A stretch of DNA of 64,000 bases. It comes from Vicugna vicugna (Eukaryota). Location of the stretch: NCBI GenBank assembly GCA_013265495.1, contig MU058065.1:10581720-10645719 (forward strand). The letters are read 5' to 3'. The notes beneath the pieces were generated by a model. That model was not told the DNA's origin and ran no database searches. It saw nothing but the letters and a program-made list of their open reading frames with translations. Positions 18,536 through 64,000 of the stretch are shown piece by piece. Positions within the stretch are counted from its first letter, which is position 1. The number at the start of each line of letters is the position of its first letter. The translations under genes were made by a program, and so were the position numbers.

Positions 18536-20880
18536 GGATGTGCTTAATATGTGCTTAATGGTGTCACATACATTTCTCTGAGCTTTGCTTTTTTTTCATT
18601 TTTTCCTCTCTAATCTTCAGATTGTATAATCTCTATTGTATTGATCTTTCTTCAATTTTGCTAATTTTTATTTTTATTGATCCCCTCTAGTGTACTTTTT
18701 ATTTCAGTTATTATAATTCTTAACTCCAGATTTTTATTTGCTTCCTTTTTAAACAGTTTCTGTCTCTTCCTTTATTTTCTCTGTTTGATGAGATACTGTC
18801 TTCATAGCTTCATTCACTTCTTTAACCATGGTTTCCTTCATTCTTTGGAAATATTTATAGTGGCTACTAAGTATTACTTAATCTCTGTGTGTTAAATCTG
18901 ACATCTGGTTGATCTCCTTGCTTCTTGCTACTGCCTGTTTTCTCCCCTCTCTATGGGTCATATTTTCTTGATTCTTTGCATAATATTTTTTTGAAAACTG
19001 AACATTTCAGTTAATATATTGTAACAATTCTTGATACCACCCATACTGTAGTTTTTGTTGGTTTCTTTATCTGTTTAGTGACTGGCTGGATTATTTTAAT
19101 GAAGTCCATTTTCCCTGTAGTGCAGAGACCCTGACATTGTCCTTCAGGGTGCAGCCTTGGCATTTGCACAGGCAGGTGTGGGAGCCCATGATTGGGTTAA
19201 CAAATTGTAACAGACCCCAGCTGCTTCTGGGCTGATGGTCTGCTTTAACATATCTATAAGATTGTATATTATTCCCCTCTCCCCATGACTTCCTTAAAGG
19301 TAAACTGTAGGCCCCCAAAGAAATGAGTCTTGGGCTGGAATGATAAACAAGTTATAAAAAGCTTCAGACTCAGAGGTGAAAAGGCTGGTTAGCCAATGAC
19401 GGGTAAGACCCCTAGAGGGGGGCAACCTAAGACAGGCACAGCCACCTGAGTCCAAGAAAAATGTTAAAGCGGCTACTTCTCAGACATTTTGCCCTGATAA
19501 GCTGTAAGGCTCGCTGATGTCAACACAAATATGACTTGCTAAAACCTAGAGGACCTTCTGACCTTGAGCCAGACTCTATAATCTAAATCCCACCCTGTCT
19601 TTCCCTAAATTCCTGCATTCCATCACACAATGGTTAGTGATTTCCTAAATTCCTGCATTCTGTCTCACAATGGTCAATGATTTCTCCTTTGACTGTAGAC
19701 AATAAATGTGGGAGCAATTGAGAGGTTCCGGGAGTTGGCTCCCGACTCCTTCTCGCTCTCTTGACTTTTTCCACAGAGTCTTGAGTAGTTCATTCCATTT
19801 TGGTGGGACTTCTGCTGGCCAGAACCCACGACTGGTGATGAACCCACAGGCAGGTGATATGGCAGTGGCTTACAAGTGCTCTCTTTGTCTCTTTTTTTCT
19901 GACCATATACAACTCTACTGTAAAGCTCTACTAATTGTTTGCTTATTACTGTATTGTTTTCAACAATGACCCAAAGGATAAATTGTCCCACAGACTGATT
20001 CAATTAAATTTGAGCTTCTTTGCAGTGTTAGTTTAGGAATTCAGTGTTTGAGGTTTGTTTTGGCCCTAGGAGAACTCTTCTTGGTTGTCTGTTTCAGGTT
20101 CTTTCTGGTAAAATATATTGGCCTCTTCTTTAACTGATATATATCTCTAATAAAGCTGCGGTCTTCTTGTAACTGCTTTGTTATTTTTGAGAGCCCCCTT
20201 AGACGTGAAGTTCACCATACTCTCTTTCAATGGAAGTTCCTTCAGGAAGGGCTTTGAATCTCTGCATTTTATAACCTGTCTCTACCCTGAAAAAAAAAAT
20301 CCTTCAGCCATGGTTCCAGAGGTGGGGTTGGGGATAGTGGCGCATTTCTCCCCAAATGACTTTTCTGTCTTAGAAACTGAGTACTAGGCTGGTGGAGGGA
20401 GCCTCTGATCTTCTTGGCTTGTGTCCCCTAATGTGGAAATTCCACACTATGAATAGGCCAGGGAGAAGGCAATTAGGACCCCAGTATTTTCAATATTTTG
20501 TGATAGTAGTACAGCCTCTGCAACCTCAACTTAGCTGCGACTCCAAGAATTACCCGCTGAACAAGATACTGGGACAGAGAATGGAGAGGTGGGGGTGATA
20601 GGATGCAAATTGCCCATATCCAGCCTCTCCCAGGATATATCATATTCTATGACTAGGAGTTTTGGACATAAAGAACTCCGTGTTCTTGGCTGCACAAACC
20701 TGGAGTAGAATTTGTCTTATACTGATCTGGGAGGGAGGAAGGGGATCATGATTCAAATGTCTCAGATTATCACTGTTCTTACCAAGTTTGAATACATGTT
20801 TCTTCACTTGCTGTATGCCCTTAAAAACATTTCCAGAGATTTTAAATTGTTTTATTTTTCCACTTTCAGCAGTTTCTTTG
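18536..20880 (-). mobile_element. Old L1 ORF1/5' region relic, interrupted by a solo LTR at 19177-19848
   Basis: atttcagttattataattcttaactccaga and ttttgaaaactgaacatttc antisense ORF1 motifs; a moderately GC-richer 5'-like sequence resumes after the LTR; right boundary uncertain. Confidence 0.6.
19177..19848 (+). mobile_element. Solo ERV LTR, 672 bp, class II (ERVK/betaretrovirus)-like
   Basis: Termini TGTGGG...CCCACA (perfect 6-bp inverted repeat); perfect 6-bp TSD ggcagg at 19171-19176 and 19849-19854; CCAAT 19393-19397; AATAAA 19701-19706; internal 40-bp tandem duplication. Confidence 0.9.
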
Positions 20881-22875
20881 AAGACTAGTTCCACAAAGCT
20901 CCTTGAATAGTGTGTTTCACCTGTACCTACTTCTACATCAGTGATGATGATAATAATTATATAATAATAATTATTAAATAATAATTGTGGCATTATATTA
21001 TTAATAGCAGTAAACACTAATAGTTATTATTAGATGAAGAATGAACATCACAACATATTTTTTAAAAAGAAAAGATATTTTCCCAAGGTAATTAAGCATT
21101 TGATAAAACATTTAATGGCTGAGAGTAAGTTGTGTGTTTTCAGTAAGCTGGAAGGATCTCTGATATTGTACTATTCCACCTTCCATACATATATGTGTGT
21201 ATTTGGCTTTCTCTCCCCCAAAATTTGGAGTTTCTTGAGGATATGACAGTGCTCATTAATCTTTGTATTGTCTGACACATATCATATAGCCCACATACAG
21301 GCTTTTAATATACTAGTTGATTATTTGGTAAATGACAACTCCCTTGCTAGATATTTGGAAATATACCTACACTATGTTTTGTGTAACCACAGACTATTGT
21401 TCTTTGACAGAGTGCAAAATAATTTGGGTAGGAAGTCAAGAGTCTTCGTTGGTTCATTGTGAGTTGGAGGTACAGTAAACCTACTACTTACTTTCAAATC
21501 CCTTCATCTGCTTTTCTTGAATCAAGGTTTATGTCACTATCCTGATAGTCTGATAATAATTGGAGCTAAACTGAAAATAGCAATAAGTATTTTAACCTTT
21601 TTACAAGTTCCAAAGGAACTTGTCTCTTGGATCAAGTTTCTTGGAATTACCATTTAATAACTTAAATAAAATAGCAATAATGTAATTGAAAAACTGGTAA
21701 CCTAGTGGATCTAATGAAAAATTGTCCTAGACTGTAGAGTTAAATTTATCCAAGAGAGGATTTTAGTAGAACACAGGAATCACCAATCCAATGCCATGCA
21801 TAGGAGTTTAACAAATGCTTATTTGCATGAGTATACTTCATGCAGGTTATGAATACTTTTAAAAAGGCTCATTCTTCCTTTCTTTTTGTGAAAATCTGGG
21901 AATAGTTGGTAGTTTGATGTTCTCAAAACATGTTAATTGTCTCCAAAAATCTGTAAGATAGTAAAGGATTAGTAAGGTAAAAATCTCTAATTTTAGTATA
22001 AAAATGAGGATAAGTCCCAGGTGGGAGATTTTAATTAAAGCAGTCTTCTGTCAAGATAATTAATAGTTTTTGCTCTTTTATATACACAAGTATAAGTCTA
22101 AATTTTTAAGGGTGCTGTTTAAATTATTATACAGCATGCTAATGCTTGAAGTTATTTATTCAATAATTTTTGTCATTATTTAGAATAATTTCTCTTGCTG
22201 AGTTACATATATTTTGAGTAAAAAATAGCAAAAACTTTCTATATCTTCTAGACATAAACTATATCCTTTATCACATTATTGTATTTATAACATTATTGTA
22301 CTAAATGAGTGATAAAATATGAAACTTATTTACAAATTGCATTTACTTTGATTTAAACTTACATATAAATACAAGTATTTCTTTTGCTCTGTATATTTGT
22401 GTGTGTGTATTCAGAGTTGCCTCCTTATAAGAATCACTATGAAACTGTAAAGCAAACAAACAGGTTAAAGAGCATATACACCTAAATGCTAGCTATAAAA
22501 CATATACTTACAAAGACATGCATTAGTTGTCCAACTTACTGAGCTATTATCCCTACCCCTAAATTATCACAGAATTAAATACATTTATATTAGAATAATT
22601 TTTCTTCTTTAAATTAAGCATGAATATTTAAAAAATACATGTACTATCCAGGACCCATATGCAAACCTGATGTGCTTTTTAGAGAACTTCAGTTAAATAA
22701 GTTAAGGATCATGCATCTTAAAAAAATTTTTTTCTACTTATATTTTTAAAGTGGAACTATAGAATTATAGCTTAACTTTTCCTAATGTGCTTGAATGAAA
22801 GGATAGACTAAATGGTGCTCTATTCTTTGGATATTGCTTTTTTTAATGAAATAAACATAAAAAATATGAGATTTT

Positions 22876-23898
22876 TTTCCTCCCCTCTTAATTTAAACTT
22901 TTTTAAAACATTTTTTATTGATTTATAATCATTTTACAATGTTGTGTCAAATTCCAGTGTAGAGCACAATTTTTCAGTTATACATGAAAATATATATATA
23001 TCCATTGTCACATTTTTTTCTCTGTGAGCTACCATAAGATCTTGTATATATTTCCCTGTGCTATACACTATAATCTTGTTTATCTGTTCTACAATTTTGA
23101 AATCCTAGTCCATCCCTTCCCACCCTCTGCCCCCTTGGCAACCATAGGTTTGTATTCTATGTCTATTTTTTATTTATGCTTTGTTTCTGTTTTGTTTTGT
23201 TTTGTTTTGTTTTAGATTCCACTTATGAGCAATCTCATATGGTATTTTTCTTTCTCCTTCTGACTTACTTCACTTAGAATGACATTCTCCAGGGACATCC
23301 ATGTTGCTGCAAATGGCATTATGTTGTCAGTTTTTATGGCTGAGTAGTATTCCTTTGTATAAATATACCACTTCTTCTTTATCCAGTCATCCGTTGATGG
23401 ACATTTAGGCTGTCTCCATGTCTTGGCTATTGTAAATAGTGCTGCTATGAACATTGGGGTGCAGGTGCCATTATGAAGTAGGGTTCCTTCTGGATATAAG
23501 CCCAGGAGCAGGATTCCTGGGTTACATGGTAAGTCTATTCCTAGTCTTTTGAGGACTCTGCATACTGTTTTCCACAGTGGCTGCACCAAATTACATTCCC
23601 ACCAGCAGTGTAGGAGGGTTCCCCTTTCTCCACAGCCTTTCCAGCATTTGTCATTTGTGGATTTTTGAATAATGGCGATTCTGACGGTGTGAGGTGATAC
23701 CTCATTGTAGTTTTGATTTGCATTTCTCTGATAATTAGTGATATTGAGTAGTTTTTCATGTGCCTATTGATCATTTGTATGTCTCCCTTGGTGAATTGCT
23801 TGTTTAGGTCTTTTGCCCATTTTTGGATTGGATTGTTTGGTTGTTTCTTATTAATTCGTATGAGGTGCTTATATATTCTGGAGATCAAGCCTTTGTTG
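22876..23898 (-). mobile_element. Young camelid-type L1, 5'-truncated (~1.0 kb; ORF2 C-terminus plus 3' UTR)
   Basis: Minus-strand ORFs 23541-23888 and 23212-23589 encode L1 ORF2 C-terminal motifs ([33 protein letters not shown]); TSD aaaaaatatgagatttt (22859-22875) / aaaaaatacgagatttt (23900-23916) at a canonical TTTT/AA site. Confidence 0.96.
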
Positions 23899-24065
23899 AA
23901 AAAAATACGAGATTTTAATGTAGGCCACAGATAAGCAAGTAAGCATGGGGTTGTTTGGTTGTTTCTTATTAATTCGTATGAGGTGCTTATATATTCTGGA
24001 GATCAAGCCTTTGTTGAAAAAAATACGAGATTTTAATGTAGGCCACAGATAAGCAAGTAAGCATG
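23830..24065. repeat. 118-bp tandem duplication (2 copies, 1 mismatch) spanning the L1 5' junction
   Basis: 23830-23947 equals 23948-24065 except gga vs ggg at the unit start. Confidence 0.96.
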
Positions 24066-42659: not shown

Positions 42660-42782
42660 TGGTGGTCGGGGAGGATTGGTAATTAGGTTTATTTGTTTAT
42701 TTTTTAATGGTGGTACTGGGATTAAACCCAGGACCTTATGCATGCTAAACACATACTCTAACACTGCACTATACCCTCCCCC
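42660..42782 (-). mobile_element. Camelid tRNA-derived SINE (Vic-1 type)
   Basis: Reverse complement reads GGGGAGGGTATAGTGCAGTGTTAGAGTATGTGTTTAGCATGCATAAGGTCCTGGGTTTAATCCCAGTACCACCATTAAAAAATAAACAAATAAACCTAATTACC, with A/B-box remnants; possible TSD attatttt at 42652-42659 and 42785-42792. Confidence 0.88.
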
Positions 42783-45291: not shown

Positions 45292-45956
45292 AACTCATTG
45301 GCTGAGATGAGACCTGATCTAAAGGCTGCAAAGCAGACTAGATAATGTAGGGGAACGAATTAGTGACCTAGAAGACAGGGCAACGGAAAGCACTCAATCA
45401 GAACAGCTGTGAGATAAACAAAAACAAATGAAAATAGCATAAGGGACCTATGGGAAAATATAAAGCGTGCCAATCTTCACATAATAGGGGTCCCAGAAGG
45501 GGAAGAAAGATCAAAGGGGATTGAAAAGGTATTGGAAGAAATCATGACTGAAAACTTCCCAAACTTAAAGAAGGAATCAGATACCCAAGTTCAGGAAGCT
45601 CAGAGGATCCCAAACAGGAAGAACCCACACCAAGACATATCATAATCAAGACGGCCAGAGTCAAGGATAAAGAAATGATCCTAAAGGCAGCAAGAGAAAA
45701 GCAAAGAGTGAGTTACAAGGGAACCACCATAAGGCTCTCAGCTGATTTCTCTACACAAACACTAGAGGCCAGAAGGGAGTGGCAAGATATATTCAAAGTC
45801 TTGAATGAAAAAAAGATGCAGCCTAGGATACTTTATCCAGCAAGGCTATCCTTTAGGATAGAAGGAGGGGTAAAGAATTTCACAGACAAGAAAAAGCTGC
45901 AGGAGTTTAGCAACAGTAAGCCCATGCTAAAAGAAATATTGACAGATCTACCCTAA
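45292..45956 (+). pseudogene. L1 ORF1p (truncated; RRM/CTD region)
   Basis: ILKAAREKQRVSYKGTTIRLSADFSTQTLEARREWQDIFKVL...PRILYPARLSF; the upstream part is disrupted. Confidence 0.95.
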
Positions 45957-46362
45957 ATAGAAATGCAGCAGGATGCTACAGAAATGAGAAACTCACAACT
46001 GGAAAGGTGATAACTCATGAATTACAAATAAAATAAACACGAAATTATAAAACAAGACATACAAATCATTGAGAGTGGGAGACAGAGGCAGGAAAACACA
46101 GGATTTTTCTTTCTTTCATTTTTAAATTTTTTGTTCTCGGTAGGATGGGTTTGAGATCATGTTACTATCAGTTTAATAAAAACAGTTACAGTTATGGGCT
46201 AATAGACTTACAAAAAAGGGTAGCCACAAGCCAGAAGCTTACAAGGGAGTCACAAAAACTAAATAAAATCCATGATAATACAAAGGAAAATAACCAAATC
46301 ACAAAAGGAATAAGAAAGGAAGAAAGAGGAAATACCAAATCAACTGCAAAAATAAGTTCAAA

Positions 46363-49300
46363 ATGGCAATAAACACACATCTGTCATTAATCACTGTAAA
46401 TGTTAATAGACTAAATGCTCCAGTCGAAAAACATAGAGTGGCAGACAGGATAAGAAAGCAAGAACCTTCAATATGCTGCATACAAGAGACCCACTTTAGG
46501 GAAAAGGACACATATAAAGTGAGAGTGAAAGAATGGAAAAGGATATACCATGCAAATGGAAAAGCCAAAAAAGCAGCTGTTGCAGTACTGATTTCAGACA
46601 AAATAGACTTTAAAACAAAGGCCATAAAGACAGATAAAGAAGGACATTTTATAGTGATTAGAGGAGTAATACAAGATGAGGATATTACACTCGTTAATAT
46701 ATATGCACCCAATATAGGAGCACCTAAGTACATAAAACAATTACTAACAGAGATAAAGGGGGATACTGATGGGAATACAGTCATAGTTGGAGATTTTAAC
46801 ACCACATTAACATCACTAGACAGATCTTCCAGATGGAAAATAAATAAGGCAAAAGAGAAATTAAATACTACAATAGAAAAATTAGATTTGGTGGATATTT
46901 TCAGAGCATTACACCCCCCATAAATAGGATATACATTCTTTTCAAGTGCACATGGAACATTTTCTAGGATTGATCATGTACTTGGACACAAAAGGAACCT
47001 CAGCAATTTTAAGAAGACAAATTATCTCAAGCATCTTTACCGACCACAATGCCATGAAACTAGAAATCAACAACAGAGAAGCAAAGGAGAAAAAAAGGAA
47101 AGCATGGAGATTGAACAACATGCTATTAAAAAACCAATGGGTCAATGAGGAAATCAAAGCTGAAATTAAAAATACCTTGAGACAAATGAAAATGAAAGCA
47201 CAACCACACAAAATTTATGGGACCCAGCAAAGGCAGTGCTAAGAGGGAAGTTTATAGTGATACAGGCATTCCTCAAAAAAGAACAATCTCAAATAAACAA
47301 TATAACCCACCAACTAAAAGAACTAGAAAAAAAGAACAACAACAACAACAACAAAAACCCAAAAGGCAGCAGAAGGAAGGAAATTATAAAGATTAGGGAG
47401 GAAATAAATAAAATGGAGATTTAAAAAACCATAGAAAAATCAATCAAACCAAAAGCTGGTTTTTTGAAAAAGTAAATACAATCGACAAACCTCTGGCCAA
47501 ATTCACAAAGAAGAAAAAAGAGCACAAATTAACAAAATAAGAAAGGAAAATGGAGAAATTACAACAAATAAAATAGAAATACAGAATATCATATGAAAAT
47601 ATTATGAAAAACTATAGGAACCAAACTGGATAACCTAGAGGAGGTGGACAAGTTTCTGGAAACATACTGTCCACCAAGACTGAATCAAGAAGAAACTGAC
47701 CACTTTCACAAACCTATCACTAGAAAGGAAATAGAAATAGCAATTAAAAACCTCCCTACAAATAAAAGTCCGGGACTGGATGGCTTCACCAGGGAATTCT
47801 ACCAAACATACAAAGAAGAACTCATAGCAGTCCTTCTCAGACTCTTCCAGAAGATTGAAAAGGAGGGAATACTCCCAAACTCATTCTATGAAGCCACCAT
47901 CACCCTGATACTAAAACCAGACAAAGACACTAGCAAAAAAGAGAATTATAGGCCAATATCACTGATGAACACAGATGCCAAAATCCTCACCAAAATATTA
48001 GCAAATAGAATCCAACAACACATAAAAAAGATTATACATCATGACCAAGTGGGGTTCATCCCAGGGACACAAGGGTGGTTTAACATATGCAAATCAATCA
48101 ATGTAATACATCACATCAACAAGAGAAAGGACAAAAACCACATGATCATCTCAATCGATGCAGAAAAGGCATTTGATAAAATTCAACACCCATTTATGAT
48201 TAAAAACTCTCACCAAAGTGGGTATAGAGGGAACATATCTCAACATAATAAAAGCTATATATGACAAACCTACAGCCAGCATAGTAATCAATGGTGAAAA
48301 ACTCAAAAGCTTCCCACTAAAATCTGGGACAAGGATGCCCACTATCACCACTCCTATTCAACATAGTCTTGGAAGTCCTAGCCACAGCAATCAGGCAAGA
48401 GAGAGAAATAAAAGGGATCCAAAGTGGAAAAGAAGAGGTAAAAGTGTCATTATATGCTGACGACATTACTATATATAGAAAACCCTAAAAGGTCCACACA
48501 AAAACTACTAGAGCTGATCGAAGAATTCAGCAAGGTAACAAGTTACAAGATAAACGTTCAAAAATCAGTTGCATTTCTTTACACTAACAATGAATCAACA
48601 GAAAAAGAAAGGAAAGAAACAATCCCCTTTAAAATAGCACCCAAAGTAAAAAAAATGTCTAGGAATAAATCTAACCAAGGAGGTGAAAGAGTTATACACA
48701 GTAAACTATAAACCATTGATGAAGGAAATTAAAGAAGACTTTAAAAAATGGAAAGATATTCCATGCTCTTGGATTGGAAGAATCAATATTGTTAAAATGG
48801 TCACACTGCCCAAGGCAATCTACAGATTTAATGCAATCCCTATCCAATTACCCAGGACATATTTCACAGAACTGAAACAAATCATAATAAAATTTATATG
48901 GAACCCTCAAAGACCTAGAATTGCCAAAGAATCACTGAAGAGAAAGAAAGAGGCTGGAGGAATAACTCTCCCAGACTTCAGACAATACTATAGAGCTACA
49001 GTCATCAAGACAGCTTGTTATTGGTACAAAAACAGACATATAGATCAATGGTACAGAATAGAGAGCCCAGAAATGAACCCACAAACTTTTGGTCAACTAA
49101 TCTTCGACAAAGGAGGCAAAAATATACAATGGAATAAAGACAGTCTCTTCAGCAAATGGTGTTGGGAAAACTGGACAGCAGCTTGTAAAGCAGTGAAGCT
49201 AGAACACTCCCTTACACCATACACAAAAATAAACTCAAAATGGATCAAAGACTTAAACATAAGACAAGATATAATAAACCTTCTAGAAGAAAATATAGGC

Positions 49301-50156
49301 AAAACATTGACATACATCTCAAAAATGCTCTCCTAGAACAGTCTACTCAAGCAATAGAAATAAAAGCCAGAATAAACAAATGGGACCTAATTAAACTTAC
49401 AAGCTTTTGCATAGCAAAGGAAACCATAAGTAAAACAAAAATATAACCTATGGAATGGGAGAAAATTTTTGCAAATGAAACCGACAAAGGCTTGATCTCC
49501 AGAATATATAAGTAGCTCATACGACTTAATAAGAAAGAAAGAAACAACCCAATCCAAAAATGGATTAAAGACCTAAACAAGCAATTCTCCAAGGGATACA
49601 TACAAATGATCAATAGGCACATGAAAAAATGCTCAATATCACTAATTATCAGAGAAATGCAAATCAAAACTACAATGAGGTATCACCTCACACCAGTCAG
49701 AATGGCCATCATTGAAAAATCCACAAATGACAAATGCTGGAGAGGCTGTGGAGAAAGGGNNNNNNNNNNNNNNNNNNNNNNNNNNNNNNNNNNNNNNNNN
49801 NNNNNNNNNNNNNNNNNNNNNNNNNNNNNNNNNNNNNNNNNNNNNNNNNNNNNNNNNNNNNNNNNNNNNNNNNNNNNNNNNNNNNNNNNGAACCCTACTA
49901 TGGCACCTGCACCCCAATGTTCATAGCAGCACTATTTACAATAGCCAAGACATGGAAACAGCCTAAATTTCCATCAATAGATGACTGGGTAAAGAAGTGG
50001 TATATTTATACCATGGAATACTACTCAGCCATAAAAACCGACAACAAAACGCCATTTGCAGCAACATGGATGCTCCTGGAGAATGCCATTCCAAGTGAAG
50101 TAAGCCAGAAAGAGAAAGAGAAATACCATATGAGATTGCTCATATGTGGAATCTAA
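46363..50156 (+). pseudogene. L1 ORF2p (APE endonuclease, reverse transcriptase, Cys-rich C-terminus), disrupted
   Basis: CCIQETH, NIYAPN and VGDFNT (EN); [33 protein letters not shown] and YADD at 48453-48464 (RT); stop at 46921-46923 and multiple frameshifts. Confidence 0.97.
49760..49889. other. Assembly gap (130 N) inside the L1
   Basis: Run of N. Confidence 1.
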
Positions 50157-50438
50157 AAAAAAACCAAAAAACAAAAACAAGCAAACAAAGCATAAATTCA
50201 AAACAGAACTAGACTCATAGACATAGAATACAAACTTGTGGTTGCCAAGGGAGCAGAGGGTGGGAAGGGATAGACTAGGATTTCAAAATTGTTGAATAGA
50301 TAAACAAGATTATACTGTATAGCACAGGGAAATATATACAAGATCTTATGGTAGCTAGTATAACTGAAAAATTATGCTCTACACTGGAATTTGACACAAC
50401 ATTGTAAAATGATTATAAATCAATAAAAATGTTAAAAA

Positions 50439-50660: not shown

Positions 50661-53070
50661 ATAGAACTTTCTGTATTGCCTTAATGACAACAAAAAATAC
50701 TTATTTGCAATTATATTATTGGAGAGTAGAGAAATTGGAATACAAAATATAAATAAATTTATTTTTCTTTATTATTGTCAGTAAGAGGCAAAGATTAAAA
50801 TGTAACTTATCCAAGGAGTCAAAAAAGTTTGAACTCTTTCAAATTGTTTTCATTTTTACATAGATCGAGTAATAACTTTGCTACATTGATGGAAAAAAAA
50901 AGCTTAACTTAAAACAGCAGCAACTGTAATGTATTTCTTATTTGAAGTTCTATTTGCAGTACTCAACAGAACTTCACATTTGGCTGAAAAAGCACATGCC
51001 ATCATTCAACTAGAGTGCTGTACAACTTCTGGCAGGCAAAAAAAAGGCATTATTACTATCATCATCATCACCATTGTAGAAAAGGGTACTTAGCCTCCCT
51101 CTAGGAATTCTAAAATGGTTACAGTCCAGCTTGTATGAATTGTTTTATACATTAGAAAAAAAAAGAGTAAATGAAAGGGTGAAAAGTAGCTCTTATGTTT
51201 TATTATCTTGGAATTTGGACTATAAAGAGCCCTGAATTATCGGTGTAAAATTATGGGAAAATAAAACGTCACAATGTACAGTTACTTACACTCGATTTAC
51301 TTATGTGTCAAGTCATAAATCTGTTCTTTAAGTAGATTCCTCACTATTGAAATAAGTGTTTAATTTTAATGTTTATGTTTTTTGCTTGTGCTGGTGCTTT
51401 AGTACAATCTCACAATATTCAAAGATATTTTTGACGTGGTCAAATCATATCATTTTATGTATGTGGCAAATTTCACTACTTGTCAATACATTCAGGCTGA
51501 AATTTTCAAAACCCAGCATTTAAAAGACATACATAAGCTGTATATTTGAGCCCCCTTGTTGATACTTAGCTAAGCTAATACCCATTTTCTTGCCTAAGTG
51601 CCTACCAAAGTGAAATAATTGTGCATTGAGGTGCCAACTACGGTGTCTGAGTTGAAAAATGGCGTCGATTTTGGAGAATGTTAAATATTTTATACAGTTG
51701 TCCTCAGCATTTGTCAAACTGCAGCAGTCGTTACAGAGAATGGAGAATGGAGAGAAGACCTTGATCTAGGCATTTATTTAGTTATGCCAGAACCTTAGCT
51801 AGAATGCAGTATCAAGTGTGATGTGTGTTATATGGACCTCCGGTGTATGTGTTTTTAAATAGCCTATCTCCTTAGAACCCAGTTACTTTTCACATAGTTT
51901 CTAGACTGTTAATGCTTTTCTCCAGCAGCATTATTCCAGAAATGTTTGAAGCATTTTCAAGCAATGCACTGAATAGAGTGCTTACAGCTGACTAGATATT
52001 TATGGCAGGTAGAGAAGAACAATGCAAACTGAAATGTTTTACTTCCACTGCAAAGAATACTTGCTCTAGGTGAATGGTGTACAAATTCAGCAAAGAAGTA
52101 TTTCTACCTGATACTCTAAAAAGCTCCACAGGGACATTTTAAAGAGAGGAAAACAAGTGAAAATATCTTTTGCTCCAGGGAACGATTTAGTTGCCTGAAA
52201 ACTACCAAGGTAGTGCTTAAAATATACATAATTTTTTTCTGTTAACTGAATAAAATGAGTATTTTTTTTATTGAGCAAAGCATTTATGACACCCTTCTGA
52301 TAGAAATTAGTGACGTCTGAGACCAATTATTTGAAACGTATATGGAAGAATTTAAGAAGAAAAGTAGAGGCCAAGAAAAAAAACCCACCTTGGTTCAGTT
52401 AGAAAAAAGATAAGTGGAAAAATGTTAGCTGACAAAAGAGAAGGGATTGGTGAGATATGAGATAATTCTGTGTCTGTGTGTCTGTGTGTCTGTGTATGCA
52501 TATTTGTTAGAAGGGATGTACAACTACTAACATTTGCTAAGCTGCCCTTGTGGATTTCTTTTTTAATAATCCTGCTTTCAGTGTGAGATAAACATCTTAT
52601 TCTAGATATATTCTTTAATATTTAAAGAGTTTCTCACAGGAAGTAAAATATTGCTATACCTCGACTAATGTCCAATTTCTTCATTATTAAACAATTAACA
52701 TTGATCTCATTAATCACATACTATTTAATATAATAAAAAATTATGAATTGGACAAATTAGATTTCCCCCATCTTAAAAATGTTGATTTAATCAAAAATAC
52801 TTCTGAATATTTGATGACAATTTCAATTTTATTAAATTACACATTTTCATGTTTTGAACACCTTAAACAGCAACATAAAACAACGATTATAATTACAATC
52901 AATATTTTTACATGAAATCTAGTTATAACAATACAAATGCTCAGGATTTACAGTTTCTTCAAGAAATTTTATTTTTTCTTCTATTTATATTGTATTTCAA
53001 ACACTGATTTTATTACATTTTCTAACTTTTTTTTTCCCCTGCTCTTTTAAGAGAGTTATCATTAACATTA

Positions 53071-53801
53071 TGTAACTGATGAAATTGGAAAGACAGCCGA
53101 AAATCTGTGGCCAGGACTAGAGAATTTGATAAACAAATTGTTACCAGTTCTAATCAAGTAATTTTTGCCAAGGAAAGGACTTGTTACCAACTCTTTTGAC
53201 GAGGCTCCCAACAAGGATCCTTCTGCCAAGTGTCCCTCATGCCAATAGAAGGACACCAACCTCGGTTTGGAAGGAAAAGAGTTTTTTTCTTCTAACACAG
53301 AAGGGAGAGGCGGGAGCTCGGCCTCGGGCGTCTGTGCTCTCCCGGACAGGCCAAGGGCGGGGCTGCTTTACAGGGTTCGCCACCGGCGCGCGGAGGGCGG
53401 GGCGGAGTCCTCGTGGTGCCACGCAGCCTCTCTGCGCAGGCGCGCTGCTCACGGCACCTCAGGCTGCGGCGCCAGGTGCAGCTTGTCTGCACACCTCACG
53501 CCGCCGCCATCTTGAGTGGAGGTGGGCTGAGCGCTTTTGCAGCGGGCTCTGCAGTTTGGCGTTTCGGCTCAGCCTTTCTACGTAGGACCGCCAATCTAAC
53601 TCGTTAGGTGCAAGGCCTCTGCACACAGGCCCTACATACAAGTGGAGCTAAACCACGGACAAAAGAGGGGCAGATACCTTATGGCCTTGATTCCATCTTA
53701 TTTTTCTGGGGAACCTCAGTGGGGTTTGCCGGTGATGGACTCCTTGTTAAGGTTAGACATTGCCTGCTGCTTGTGGAGCTGTTCAAATTGTTCACCTTAC
53801 A
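53071..53801 (-). mobile_element. Decayed ERV LTR sequence (ERV1-like; single or nested LTRs)
   Basis: TGTAAC...CTTACA outer termini and an inner TGTTACCAA end at 53182; the minus strand shows a CAAGATGGCGG motif, a TATA-position remnant CCCTGTAAAG and an A-rich polyA-position remnant in U3-R-U5 order; no clean TSD. Confidence 0.6.
53311..53603. promoter_or_regulatory. CpG island / candidate promoter
   Basis: 31 CpG counted by eye in ~293 bp; GC boxes 53355-53362 and 53395-53405; NRF1-like TGCGCAGGCGCG 53433-53444; YY1 GCCGCCATCTTG 53503-53514; CCAAT 53591-53595. Confidence 0.7.
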
Positions 53802-54015
53802 CACTGGGACTGCGACTGCTGGATTGTATGGTAAGTCTGTGTTTAACTTTACAAGAAACTGCAAAGTGTCTTCTAAAGTGATGGTATCTAACGTTCCCGC
53901 TAGTGGCTGGTGAGAGCTGTTGCTCTGCATCCTCACTGGTATTGTTGTTTGTTGGGAGTTTAGACCTTCTGTTAGGTGTGTAGTGGTATCACATTAATGT
54001 TTTAATTTGCATTTA
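53802..54015 (-). mobile_element. Old L1 ORF2 3' fragment
   Basis: tgctggattgtatggtaagtctgtgtttaactttacaagaaactgcaaa...gtgtagtggtatcacatt...ttaatttgcattt. Confidence 0.85.
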
Positions 54016-54479
54016 AGAATTTTTCTTGGGAAGGCAGCCAGATTTCTTATTTACTCTTCTTTCATTTTTAATTTGGCTTCATTTCTAGCTACTTCTAGGA
54101 GGAGAGTTTGTGAACTGCCTAACTCACAGTTTTGTTAGAACAAGAAGGTTCACATAGTGAATTAATTATATTCACTGGAAGAATTCCTCACTGCAAATAT
54201 ATTATTTGATTGGTTCGTGATTTATATGCTTATAATTCTTCTCTCCTTACTAGGTATAAATTCTGTGAAGACAGAGACATTAGTTGTCAATCACAGAGAC
54301 GTTAAATCAAAGAAGTTGAATTTGAACTCCAGCAGTCTGACTCCAGGGCCTGTGTCCTTAACTGGTAAGTTACATTGCCTCATAATTTTTGTTTACAGTA
54401 TAATTTTATTTTAACAAAATTGTCTTCAGTGTTCATTGTAGAAAAGACAGCATGGAGAGCTTTTGCATGTATTTGTTCA

Positions 54480-54610
54480 TGTAATACTTGCAATAGAATT
54501 AAGTAAGTATATTATCCCATTGTACAGATGAGGGGAATGTTTGTTTCAATTAAGTTAATGGGTAATTAGTATCAGAATTGAAACCCAAGGCTGCCCGACT
54601 CAAAAGTCCT
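54480..54610 (-). mobile_element. MIR relic
   Basis: attatcccattgtacagatgagg...gaattgaaacccaaggctgcccgactc. Confidence 0.65.
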
Positions 54611-54748
54611 TCATTCTCTCCTTCCTTCCTTTCTCTTTTTCCTTCTTTCCTCCCATCCGCGTTCCTTTCCTCTTACCTTTCTTCTTTCCTTACTCCTTAC
54701 TCTCCTTTATTTCCTCCCCCTCCTCCTCCTTTGCTTCCTTCTTTCCTT
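54608..54748. repeat. CT-rich polypyrimidine low-complexity tract
   Basis: ccttc/ctt/cct degenerate repeats read directly. Confidence 0.9.
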
Positions 54749-54759
54749 AGTTTTGAAAC

Positions 54760-55200
54760 CTTTATTGTGATTTACTGAGCTCTTAATAACTTCATATTCA
54801 AGACAGTCTGGGTAAAATAATGAACAAAAAGCAGTATAGTTCATGTTCTATTGAAATGCATATTCTAGTGAGGGATGAAAAAATGTAAGTAAACAAATGA
54901 GATATTACACAATTTGGTAAATACTATGAAAGAATCTAAATTAATGACTAAAATAGAGAATGACAGAGCCATGGGATCTCACTTGTGTGAAAAGAGGCTT
55001 CTCTGAGGAAATGATGTTTTAGCTGAAATGTAAAGACTGTGAAGGATCTGACTCTGAAAACGTTGTAGCTAAACAGCATTTCAAACATAAAAGCAGCTTG
55101 TGAAAACACCGTGATTTGAGAAACAGTTTCTTTGAGTTTACCAAAGACTATCATGTATGGAAGTTAGTGAGCAACAGTGAATGGGTACAAAATAAAGTTA
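54760..55200 (-). mobile_element. L2 LINE relic
   Basis: atgaacaaaaagcag...atattctagtgaggga...aggcttctctgaggaaatgatgttttagctgaaat is typical antisense L2. Confidence 0.6.
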
Positions 55201-55604
55201 GAATTAATTTAAATCTTGAAATTTTATTAGTAAGTAACTGTTTTCAATCATCCCCACTGCCACTTCTGGCCAAGTATAGTTTGCTCAGAACTTTTCACTA
55301 TTACTTAAACGTATCTTTCAAAAGAAGGTTTGCTGTCTTTGCAAATGCTATCCCTCTGCCTATGTTTCTCTTATATTTCTTCCTCTTGGAAAAACACTGA
55401 AGGCCCTTTTTTCTCTTTTAAAGATTTTCGCCATGTTTCTCCAAACAAATTTAATTGTTTTCTCTTCTAAATAGCCTTATACTTTTATTGTGGAATTTAC
55501 CACATTGTAATTCAAATAATCCATTTATAGCTGTGTGTCTCTCCACTAAGCTATCAGATCTTCTGAGGCAATGATCTCTTCTTATTCATTGTGTACTCCA
55601 TTAA

Positions 55605-57010: not shown

Positions 57011-58459
57011 CACTCTGATGGGACTTTAATTTATAAAAATAGTAACAGTAAAGTGGCCATAGCCATGCCGTGCCCAAGTTGAGGTATAGTAAGTCTTCAC
57101 TAAATCATATTACTGGACATGCAGGAGTAATGATCTCTTTAAGAGAAATTTAAATACTAATGTTAGAGGAAAAGGGCATACATGCTGAGCAGAAAAAAAA
57201 CAATTGATAAATTCCTCATTATAAATAAAGAAAATTTTATATTAGTTTTTCAAAGTAGAGATTTTTAATTCCCTTTTTATAGATTACTTTTAATTTAGAA
57301 TAATTAAAAACCTATGAATGCATTAGTGGGTAAGTATAGTTTGGAGAGGAGAGAATTATATTAGTCAACATCACAATATTATAAACTTAAGAAATTTTTA
57401 TTTTAAAAAATCAGCTTTTTTCTTGTTTTAAAGGCAACCTGCAATGTTTTTCATGCAGTCTAACATCATTACTGGTGATTTGTTTCTTAAGTTAATAAAA
57501 ATGCACTCTCTGGGTAGGTTCAGATTCATGTCGTATATAAATAAATGCTTTTAGCTCTTTCATGTCATCATATTTATGTACCTTCATCAGTCTGTGGCAC
57601 TTTGTGCTTATTTAGTTTTCTTAAGTGGCCTTTAATTAACAAATGGCTTGACATCTCTTCTGTAAAACTGAGATTTAAGCTATATTTTTAATGAATTTAT
57701 GCTCAAAAATGGCACTTCACAGGGGAATATTATAAACCTATTATTTGATACAATGAGTGATGAGTCTCTAAATAGACTTTTGAAAATTACCAGTGCGTAT
57801 TTTCATGATCAGAAAGGATAATAATAGGACACTCTGAGAAGCAGAATAATTGGAATAAAAGAACATAATGATGCAATGTGATGTTAGAAGGAGATCATGT
57901 GTTGCTCAAAAATAGAATTAAAATGTTTTCTCTAAACAAATCAGTATCAGTTGCGTTTGTGAGGAAGAGATTCATATAGTGTGTAATTGTTATCTAGACT
58001 ATACTCTGCTTGTTTGAAGAAAAAGAAATATGGCACTTTATAGACACGAGCATTTATGAAGAGAACTTTTTGCCCTGTACAAATCTGTTGTAGTAGCTGG
58101 ACCTGTCTTTTATCATCCCCAGAAAACAGGCTTCAGAAACAAATTAGTTCAATCTCCTGGTCCTTGGAACAGAGTATTTCTCTGAAATTTCAAGAATTGT
58201 AGCTATTACAACAGTAGGTTCCTGGAATTTGGGGAGCAAAACATCTGGATGGTGGGGTGACTTTTAAATTACCCTGAAAATACAAAATTTCCTGTTGTAA
58301 ATATATTTAATTTTGTTTCTCTATGCCTTGATTTTTTTATATTCTTATCTTTAAAATGGTTTTATTAATCCTGATAGTTCTGCAAATTTAGTTGTAGGGC
58401 TAGTAAAAAAGTTACCAAAGAAATTAATTAATATATTTTATTAAATAAACTAGATGATT

Positions 58460-61830: not shown

Positions 61831-63367
61831 CAGTAATTTTGCAGTACCCTTCCTAATAAAAACAAATCTGAAGGGTTTCTCACTTGTAATAACCCTCTTT
61901 TCTCAAAACTGTTACATTAAACTGCATGTTCTTTATCATACAAACAATATTATTTTTAACAGTTTTTTTAACTTATCTTCTAGCACCTTGTGAACTTACT
62001 TGTTTTTTAAAATTTTAATTTAGCTAGAGATTTAGTAACTCCATTTTTTTCATTCATTTTATTAGTTAATTGATTTCAGCTATTCTAACTACACATTCCT
62101 TACTTTGTTAACCTTTGGCACATGTAATTTATTTTCTTAAATATAATCTGTGAATTCTCATCATAATTCCTTAATACTGAATTATATTTAAATATGGTTA
62201 TTGGGATAAACTATACATTTTAAATATTACATATTCTGATTCATCAGTTTTAAAACTCTGAATTATATATCAGTGAAAATTAATATTGTTCCAAAGGCAC
62301 ACAGAGTGGTAAATGATAAAAAAGAGACATTTTGTTTTATGAAGTCTAAGTATATTACTCATATGGATAAAGACATAGACGATTTAAGAAAATTGTCACA
62401 GATGGAAAGCAGAATATTCTTTAATATTAACTTGCAGTGCTTTTTACATTTCTCTGAGAACATACTCACTTACCATATCAATTAATGTGTTTGCTGCCTT
62501 TGAAATATATTTAGATATATGATACTATCAGTCTGGGAGAGCACTCAATGAACAGCTGAATCTACCTTTTCACATTACTATGTCATAAGGGTGGAAAATG
62601 CTATAGTGTAATTTGTTTGAAGCACCTATTATAATGATGATGTAGTCAAGAAATAACAGTTAATTACCAAGATAGAGGCTGATCTTAAGCTAGTAAACAG
62701 TGGTGTGTCTCTCTTTCCTGAGGAACTGTGTGATTTATGTAGCTAGGAAAGCATGTTATTTTTCATTACCACAACAGCCTCATGATCTGTATTCTATTCA
62801 CATATGGAGAATAGAAAAATCTTCCTATATTTTCTATATTTTCCTATATAACATTTTCTTTGTTGTCTATTATTTAAAATAAAAGTTTAAGCTAATAAGA
62901 GAGTATAGGGGTTGATTTTTTCCCACCCAAGCTATTTGAAAAGATAATATATAAATGTATATTGTTTCTTCTACTCCTACATAGAGTAAGTACTTGGCCA
63001 TTTAAATTACCATTTTAAGATTGCTGTCCTAATGAATAATTGTTCAACCAACTGTCCTTCTAAACATGTGCTCATATAAGATTTATACCTGATATATTTT
63101 CAAATATATGTATTTGAAAAACATGACTCCTTTAGTTGTTGGAAACCTAACCCAAATTAACTTATGTTAAAAAAAAAGCCATCAACATTTTAAATGATTT
63201 ATTTTCAATATACCATGGAAGAATAAAGGTTGACACTATTGTTTTCAAGCAAAACTGGATCCAGGGCTTCAGAGTGATTATCAGAACCACCATTGCTGTT
63301 CCCTCTTCCAGCTCTTCTTTTCTTTTATTGGCCTCATTCTTTAACAGTCCACAAATAACCTGTGAGT

Positions 63368-63400
63368 TAAAAAAACCAAAAAACCAAAAAACCAAAAACA
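63368..63400. repeat. (AAAAACC/AAAAAACC)n simple repeat
   Basis: aaaaaaaccaaaaaaccaaaaaaccaaaaaca read directly. Confidence 0.85.
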
Positions 63401-64000
63401 ACTACCTGATCAGTGAACAAAAACCAGGTTCATGTTCTTTCAATAGCATTATCCCAGAGTCCAGAAGTTTCTTCTCATTGATTTTAGCACAAAATTATTT
63501 TGGAAGGAGTTGTTTCACATCTTTTGTTTAGTTCACCCTACAGTACTGCATTTTGAAGGTAGGAGGAAGCTGATGGGCTGAGGACTGTTACGTGAAGGAA
63601 GGGTAAAGGTAAAATTTTTTTGAAAGGTAATGTTTACTCTACATAAAAATTAATATTATAACAATACACACACAAACACACTTAGATGAAGAGTCCTATT
63701 TTCTATTTTTTATCTCATAGAAGATAAGCTAGTGTACATATAGCCAAAAATCCCTAAGAGAATTGAGAAAAGGAAATACGTATGTGGACCATAATTTGAT
63801 ATGCACTGAACTTGCATATCCATTCTCTGTGAAAAACTGTACATCAGTTAGTGAGGTTTAAGAATCATTTTTTAAATCATTATTTATTACAATAGTACCA
63901 CAGAAACCAATGAGCAAATCAGTGCATAAAAACAGCCTTTATTTCATTCGTTAAAATCATAGAACTTTGAAACTAGATAAGAATTTTCAGATCATTTAGC

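Follow-up and report, generated by a model that had tools for sequence, protein, structure and literature searches.

The question raised by this locus is why a small CpG-rich island furnished with promoter motifs should lie in otherwise CpG-poor DNA, and whether those features arose where it stands or came with the element that carries it. We analysed a stretch of 64,000 nucleotides from Vicugna vicugna, hereafter the window, to which all coordinates refer. The core of the island (53311-53603) holds 31 CpG in 293 bp, at a GC content of 0.686 and an observed-to-expected (O/E) CpG ratio of 0.90, against 0.313 and 0.15 for the window, in which the next best stretch of 293 bp contains 5 CpG and none contains more. 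The core qualifies as a CpG island under the rule of at least 200 bp, GC 0.5 and O/E 0.6, and under the stricter rule (500 bp, 0.55, 0.65) the longest qualifying stretch runs from 53179 to 53950 (772 bp). The ends of the surrounding element are CpG-poor, with 2 CpG in 53182-53310 and 2 in 53604-53801 (binomial p 0.0016, a value inflated because the core boundaries had been set by the CpGs). An excess of TpG/CpA as a mark of decay was considered and rejected, the O/E within the element (0.98-1.31) being about that of the window (1.20). The features of the core are as follows, with readings from the other copies of the element described below.

53311..53603, unstranded: CpG-rich core, 31 CpG, O/E 0.90
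53355..53360, + strand: GC box adjoining the TATA position; likely family trait, with a G-R-G reading in 6 of the 20 copies aligned there
53395..53405, + strand: tandem GC boxes; Gly/Arg-rich readings in most copies, in a gappy alignment
53433..53443, unstranded: NRF1-like site; motif match, 237/5000 shuffles
53513-53503, - strand: YY1 site AAGATGGCGGC; likely family trait, 2/5000 shuffles, core compatible in 11/12 copies
53591..53595, + strand: CCAAT box; motif match, 370/5000 shuffles
53373-53366, - strand: TATA position, non-canonical CTGTAAAG; from motif scan and copy readings
about 53291-53284, - strand: LTR poly(A) signal position, broken here, in an A-run; from residues in copies, as codon compatibility only

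The significance of the motifs was estimated with 5000 dinucleotide-preserving shuffles of the core, using patterns picked with the sequence already seen. The YY1 11-mer recurred in 2 of these shuffles, three long GC boxes in 6, three occurrences of GGGCGG (found on the + strand at 53355, 53395 and 53400) in 125, the NRF1-like site in 237 and the CCAAT box in 370; all four kinds of motif together appeared in none. The YY1 site and the GC boxes are above chance, and the NRF1-like site and the CCAAT box are singly marginal. An earlier sequence-only reading of the window, which had proposed that an old LTR was converted here into a TATA-less promoter, was accurate in its inventory: the CpG count and the scarcity of CpG elsewhere agree with ours, and a motif scan placed the GC-box clusters and the NRF1-like, YY1 and CCAAT sites where it had put them.

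The origin of the core can be addressed through other copies of the same sequence, which we sought in the form of spurious ORF translations. A phmmer search with the window frame 53154-53582 against 1.84 billion representatives returned 16 matches, 15 of which are other copies of the element; the remaining one (P0002) was dropped as repetitive and unrelated. A profile search added 9 further copies (15 proteins out of 8000 scored candidates, 6 of them already found). The copies score 64-174, compared with at most 61 for shuffled proteins in 460 trials. With P0008 and P0013 counted as one locus, on account of their common flank, and with P0002, P0013 and the cluster members P0017-19 and P0029-50 left out, the set comprises 23 independent copies. 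They are protein proxies from ENA and Logan contigs, selected both through gene calling and through similarity to the query, and the sampling favours GC-rich and CpG-rich copies, since a long frame and resemblance to the query were both required. Pattern scans for DNA copies gave 0 matches in viral contigs and 0 in genome contigs, and a word-indexed protein search with the 143-residue frame gave 0 among 269 candidates. One pattern match in a metagenome contig was dismissed as chance, being 27 bp of GC-rich, bacterial-looking DNA with no further likeness. As an observation in its own right, host DNA in metagenome assemblies has left spurious translations of mammalian LTRs in public protein collections.

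53182..53759, - strand: LTR-like repeat copy in the solo state, oriented with U3 at its right and with R and U5 at its left

In a frameshift-aware alignment 16 of the 23 copies begin at 53172-53184, and the residues ahead of this edge are unlike between copies (the only similar pair among 91 is P0008/P0013, treated as one locus) and unrelated to the window flank. The common start and the unrelated upstream residues indicate that the TG at 53182, which coincides with the left edge of the family, is the edge of a dispersed repeat. On the right, homology was traced to 53735, with the tails of P0007, P0023 and P0013 reaching 53732-53735 and scoring above 40 of 40 shuffles. Two CA dinucleotides, at 53759 and 53801, are candidate termini, and we infer that the element ends at the former, with the latter as the alternative. 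No exact target-site duplication was found at the 53182 edge, in agreement with the sequence-only reading; the best candidate, GACT/CACT (3/4), requires the right end at 53801, and with the end at 53759 there is none. A 9-mer at the left edge recurs 43 bp further left (53138-53223, 23/43 bases in register); this was set aside as a meaningful sign, as there are 16 such cases in the window and it may be chance.

The median residue identity of the copies is 0.476 (0.39-0.57), which under a simple model corresponds to about 70% DNA identity and therefore to an old family. Residues compatible with a poly(A) signal at 53278-53292 were recognized by eye in 18 of the 23 copies, and neither in the other 5 nor in the window; TATA-compatible residues lie about 80 bp to the right of this position in 3 to 6 of 20 copies, which is the order expected of an LTR on the - strand. 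Both readings are of residue compatibility, as codons are not readable from proteins. Inspection by eye revealed no primer-binding site, purine tract or internal sequence at either end, and there is no second copy of the element within the 64-kb window. We consider the element likely to be the solo LTR of an endogenous retrovirus, with a layout that would suit the ERV1 type. The earlier description of a decayed old LTR gains support from the dispersed copies, the sharp left edge and the inferred divergence. A very young LTR, which that reading had named as an outcome that would overturn it, was rejected on the approximately 70% identity inferred between copies, and an ordinary gene promoter that is not an LTR was rejected on their dispersal. 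The main text of PMC8605555, which came up in a search for camel and camelid LTR promoters, is silent on CpG and solo LTRs in the parts that were accessible.

The same copies allow inherited features to be distinguished from local gains. Of the 12 copies whose alignment spans the YY1 site, 11 have residues that fit its core, in all three reading frames, and a further 6 sequences fit it by eye. For the GC box beside the TATA position, several copies in addition to those with the G-R-G reading are compatible in other frames or with deamination-type residues. At the TATA position itself, 3 of 20 copies are TATA-compatible (F-I), 3 ambiguous (L-Y-R), 5 window-like (F-T-G four times, L-Q-G once) and 9 different; the non-canonical TATA would hence not be peculiar to this locus, given the 5 copies that read like the window. 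The NRF1-like and CCAAT sites could not be resolved in the copies. For CpG we used a proxy, in which CG at codon positions 1-2 reads as Arg and its deaminated forms as Cys, Trp, His or Gln. At the CpG codons of the window's core the copies read Arg 60 times, Cys/Trp/His/Gln 49 times and other residues 42 times (of 151), and at the window's TG/CA codons, the reverse case, they read Arg 29 times in 151. A GpC control matches this excess of losses (36/199 vs 11/114), and retention of Arg (60/151, 40%) does not differ significantly from that of Gly/Ala/Pro (231/495, 47%; p 0.14, the cells not being independent). Among the 20 window CpG sites that at least 3 copies cover, 9 are mostly Arg and 3 mostly of the decay type, and at 4 of 22 window TG/CA sites most copies read Arg. 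A per-copy index, Arg/(Arg+Cys+Trp+His+Gln), was computed for those 17 of the 23 copies that align over 45 core codons or more: 8 reach the window's values (0.54 and 0.70) and 9 fall below them, two of these being strongly decayed (0.10 and 0.16).

By this proxy the vicuña copy belongs to the CpG-retaining part of a family in which retention is frequent, and some of its own CpGs have been lost as well. The recurrence of the motifs and of much of the CpG in other copies suggests inheritance rather than local gain, so that the GC box, the YY1 site and most of the CpG retention are likely to be family traits. This is in line with the accessible portions of two publications, one describing ubiquitous sites such as those for SP1/SP3 and YY1 as native to ERV LTRs (PMC7778262) and the other describing NF-Y and Sp1 sites as native to LTR12 (PMC11007075). 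In a sample biased towards CpG-rich copies, with 8 of 17 reaching its index and with the motifs shared, this copy does not stand out from its paralogues. The claim that the motif set or the TATA-less state marks a conversion at this locus finds no support, given the recurrence of the YY1 core and the GC box and the 5 of 20 copies sharing the TATA reading. Of the statement that the core had "kept or gained" CpGs, the first half fits better than the second, with 8 of 17 copies as CpG-rich by proxy. The same 8 copies go part of the way towards the situation, also named as one that would overturn the sequence-only reading, in which all paralogues are equally CpG-rich.

The features that are local to this insertion are those of its flanks.

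53802..55301, + strand: right flank, with strong donor motifs (6), a single poly(A) hexamer and skew towards T and G
51682..53181, - strand, read outward: left flank, lacking strong donor motifs and containing 9 poly(A) hexamers, the first at 53014

Over 1500 nt of the + strand the right flank contains 6 donor motifs vs 1.47 expected (6/2000 shuffles); its single poly(A) hexamer vs 2.3 expected (688/2000) is not a significant lack once composition is kept. Read outward on the - strand, the left flank contains 9 hexamers vs 4.9 expected (96/2000) and no donors, and the opposite strands of both flanks show no donor or hexamer signal. The donor-minus-hexamer difference of the right flank was reached by 0 of 77 tiles, and its sign was positive in all 16 of 16 other settings; the asymmetry was matched by between 0/213 and 47/236 overlapping window positions, being weakest at 500 and 2000 nt. 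As the result varies in this way, the asymmetry is a moderate, setting-dependent signal; the donors had been noticed by eye ahead of the statistical test. The first 500 bp on the right have a TA skew of +0.20 and a GC skew of +0.135, which is exceeded by 1 of 78 tiles and fades with distance; the skew is 0.087 right of the element vs 0.017 left of it (40,960 unmasked bases), and the TG/CA skew is unremarkable (3/78 tiles). Under crude repeat masking, the CpG O/E of the unmasked flanks is 0.24 vs 0.12 (26 CpG vs 12.9 expected), above all 10 of 10 background blocks (best 0.214), and the first 200 bp to the right form a GC shoulder of 43-44%. The sequence-only reading had given no direction; our data point rather to the + strand, which is antisense to the LTR, and the flanks have the sequence features that mark directional promoters. 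Such marks are known from the accessible sections of the literature: U1/PAS asymmetry at one-way promoters (PMC6172195), a spike of T/G-type skew on the non-template strand at the 5' ends of CpG-island genes (PMC2927911), and shores of lowered methylation around unmethylated islands in sperm (PMC4509998). Sperm hypomethylated regions are described as born often in mammals in PMC5793779, in the consulted text of which LTRs are not treated.

We propose, as an interpretation that seems to us somewhat more probable than otherwise, that the island represents the core, rich in GC and CpG, of one copy of an old dispersed repeat, likely a solo LTR with likely inherited motifs, and that this copy likely remains unmethylated and likely serves as a TATA-independent + strand promoter of a predicted spliced non-coding RNA. 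The U3 regions of LTRs fire both ways, and in the antisense direction they do so without a TATA box, via Sp1 sites. Binding of Sp1-type factors and of YY1 in the U3 core would have left many copies of the family under-methylated in the germ line, and under such conditions CpG in the core would decay slowly and CpG in the ends normally. An LTR-sense RNA would then encounter clustered poly(A) signals at a distance of 170-600 bp (from 53014) and be cut short; an antisense RNA would meet donors at 53831, 53910 and 54365, with no poly(A) hexamer until 55191, and could be spliced and stabilised. Promoter use is in our opinion plausible, and would most likely be antisense to the LTR.

53480..53830, + strand: predicted first exon, with a start inferred near the YY1 site and the consensus-type donor 53831; alternative donors 53522 and 53910
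54254..54364, + strand: predicted second exon of 111 nt, separated from the first by an intron of 423 nt; without ATG

Splice sites were ranked with a splice matrix: donor 53831 is 12th and donor 54365 2nd of 3056 GT sites on the + strand, and acceptor 54254 is 7th of 3749. No strict branch-point match was found ahead of the second exon. The latter, 495 bp from the element, is the top-scoring AT-rich exon candidate in the whole window, and its 3' half (54300-54365) resembles a MIR fragment. According to the accessible parts of two studies, starts are found about 65 bp downstream of GC boxes (PMC2715254) and coincide with YY1 sites or slightly precede them (PMC3491394); these distances point to a start near 53480-53520. 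As regards a host gene, none of the 251 open frames of the window reached the Pfam cut-off (four weak matches were taken as chance), a PDB search with two frames returned nothing below E 0.1, a 43-residue frame in the predicted first exon had no match among longer proteins (0/1), and Rfam found over the window only a tRNA-like match at 42708-42778. The product would probably be non-coding, or the 5' leader of something beyond the window. Among the public sequencing runs listed, 18 of 24 contain 52800-54600 or part of it; 8 of these are RNA on record, from 2 studies, with a best RNA share of 0.20. We gave these runs no weight, as they may hold any part of the stretch, whether as RNA or as DNA. 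At 57436-57512 an acceptor-like and a donor-like site surround an ATG open frame with no Pfam or PDB match, which could be a later exon.

Other readings of the same data have to be weighed against this proposal. One would be that this solo LTR, as a member of a family that retains CpG, is merely carried along neutrally and makes no stable transcript, the donors and skew on its right being due to chance. Family-wide retention of CpG and motifs is enough by itself to explain the island, the flank statistics are moderate and setting-dependent, and no host gene was detected (0/251 frames at the Pfam cut-off). However, the donor excess, the step in T/G skew and the CpG shore, which are partly independent, agree with each other and begin at the element, and the best AT-rich exon candidate of the window lies 495 bp away; we regard a passenger as possible, though on balance doubtful. 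The flank signals also bear on the suggestion that the LTR sits antisense in an intron of a longer + strand gene starting elsewhere, to which the exon at 54254 would belong. Intronic LTRs are usually antisense to the host gene, and exons that lack Pfam domains or are shorter than the scanned frames would have been missed. Nonetheless, the + strand left of the element has 1 donor motif vs 0.96 expected and near-zero skew (0.017), and the change in both signals sits at the element, which makes such an intron scarcely credible.

The remaining two explanations concern the core itself. One of them holds that this copy alone escaped methylation, kept or gained its CpGs and motifs, lost its TATA box and was selected as a host promoter. 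It is favoured by the clear decay of some copies (index 0.10 and 0.16, the window having 0.54 and 0.70, with 9 of 17 copies lying below the window), by the greater number of window CpGs lost in copies than the reverse (49 vs 29), by the 3 of 20 window CpG sites that are mostly of the decay type, and by the sampling bias, owing to which typical copies may be far more decayed than those we see. On the other hand, the same asymmetry is present in the GpC control, Arg is kept about as often as Gly/Ala/Pro, the window has TpG/CpA at 4 of 22 sites where most copies have Arg, and the YY1 site, the GC box and the odd TATA reading are common to other copies, so that we find a lone escape quite unlikely. 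GC-biased gene conversion at a long-lived recombination hotspot could also have raised or renewed the CpG content, as suggested by the high turnover of the core (231/495 Gly/Ala/Pro codons kept) at high GC and by the GC shoulder on the right. Yet the copies are Gly/Arg/Ala-rich over the same span, indicating that the core was GC-rich from the start, the flanks remain AT-rich within 300 bp, and the strand-specific pattern of donors and poly(A) signals would be left unexplained; we consider this highly improbable.

The proposed antisense promoter has counterparts among characterized LTRs. Dunn et al. (2006) are said to have found that LTR9, of the ERV1 class, is a bidirectional promoter of DSCR4 and DSCR8. 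This case is known to us through the accessible parts of two reviews (PMC11007075, PMC10186651), according to which it too involves a solo ERV LTR with an Sp1-site core, transcription along and against its own orientation and a contribution to first-exon sequence. In LTR9, however, both transcripts and the core have been demonstrated experimentally, whereas here only one direction appears, from its sequence, to be stabilised; the family and the lineage are also different. CpG-rich solo LTRs that start lncRNAs include, in the consulted portion of PMC11007075, LTR12C (SChLAP1, PRLH1), MER52A (lncMER52A) and LTR70 (TROJAN), which share with our element the CpG-rich LTR, inherited sites of the Sp1/NF-Y type, and a first exon within the LTR that is spliced onward. 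Nonetheless, those lncRNAs are listed as LTR-sense in a table of that review, in contrast to the antisense RNA predicted here, and our family is much older than LTR12C, to judge from the approximately 70% identity inferred between its copies. Negative-sense promoters are described for the LTRs of HTLV-1, HIV-1 and MLV, and antisense activity also for solo LTRs, in the available text of PMC10186651; the likeness lies in antisense starts within U3/R that lack a TATA box, depend on Sp1 and may lead into host DNA, and the difference in that these viruses are exogenous and their LTRs intact, whereas the vicuña element is a decayed solo copy fixed in the germ line. Finally, the repurposing of enhancers to promoters by a U1/PAS shift (PMC6172195, in part) resembles our locus in that U1 sites are more numerous and poly(A) signals fewer downstream of a CpG-rich start in the stable direction. 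However, that study compared orthologues, whereas ours is a reading of a single locus, where the donors may be either older or younger than the insertion.

Several other features of the window may be recorded here. A second element, at 19330-20900, which has an LTR-like part with CCAAT and AATAAA followed by internal-looking sequence and which we take to be an ERV-like remnant, is CpG-decayed (O/E 0.27 and 0.14) and bears no resemblance to the element studied here. Positions 1-800 show T and G skew (+0.19, +0.16) equal to or above that of the element's right flank, and a start site or a simple repeat may immediately precede position 1. The + strand has an L1 at 45300-50350 that is long and fairly intact and includes 130 N of assembly gap (49760-49889); the 3' end of a related L1, which lies on the - strand at 22900-24060, contains a tandem duplication of 118 bp. 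By eye, 57300-57900 and 51580-51800 look like non-repeat, conserved non-coding DNA. The region 63150-63560 has long, exon-like open frames on both strands with no Pfam match and resembles an MLT1-type element. The tRNA-like match at 42708-42778 (- strand) is just above the Rfam cut-off and is probably a tRNA-derived SINE.

LTR-derived CpG islands and LTR-started non-coding RNAs, including antisense ones, are already well described, and one more candidate matters little alone. The correction may be more useful, namely that promoter motifs and CpG within an LTR should be regarded as family inheritance until shown otherwise. The analysis also yields a testable prediction, a + strand start near 53480-53520 and a junction 53830-54254, and suggests that spurious LTR translations (here the proteins P0001-P0050) can be used to detect and describe repeat families without a genome. 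It is tempting to extend the proposal to the family as a whole, as an old group of mammalian LTRs. In many of its copies, and in spite of about 30% divergence, the U3 core would have maintained its own under-methylation in the germ line and so seeded small orphan CpG islands across genomes; the flank would set the direction of each copy, and here the antisense direction would have been captured by donors as a stable, selected gene start. In this full form we think the proposal unlikely to hold. If family-wide retention of CpG were true at the DNA level, the family would provide a natural experiment, with one promoter placed in many flanks, which would address what keeps a CpG island unmethylated in the long term and what sets its direction.
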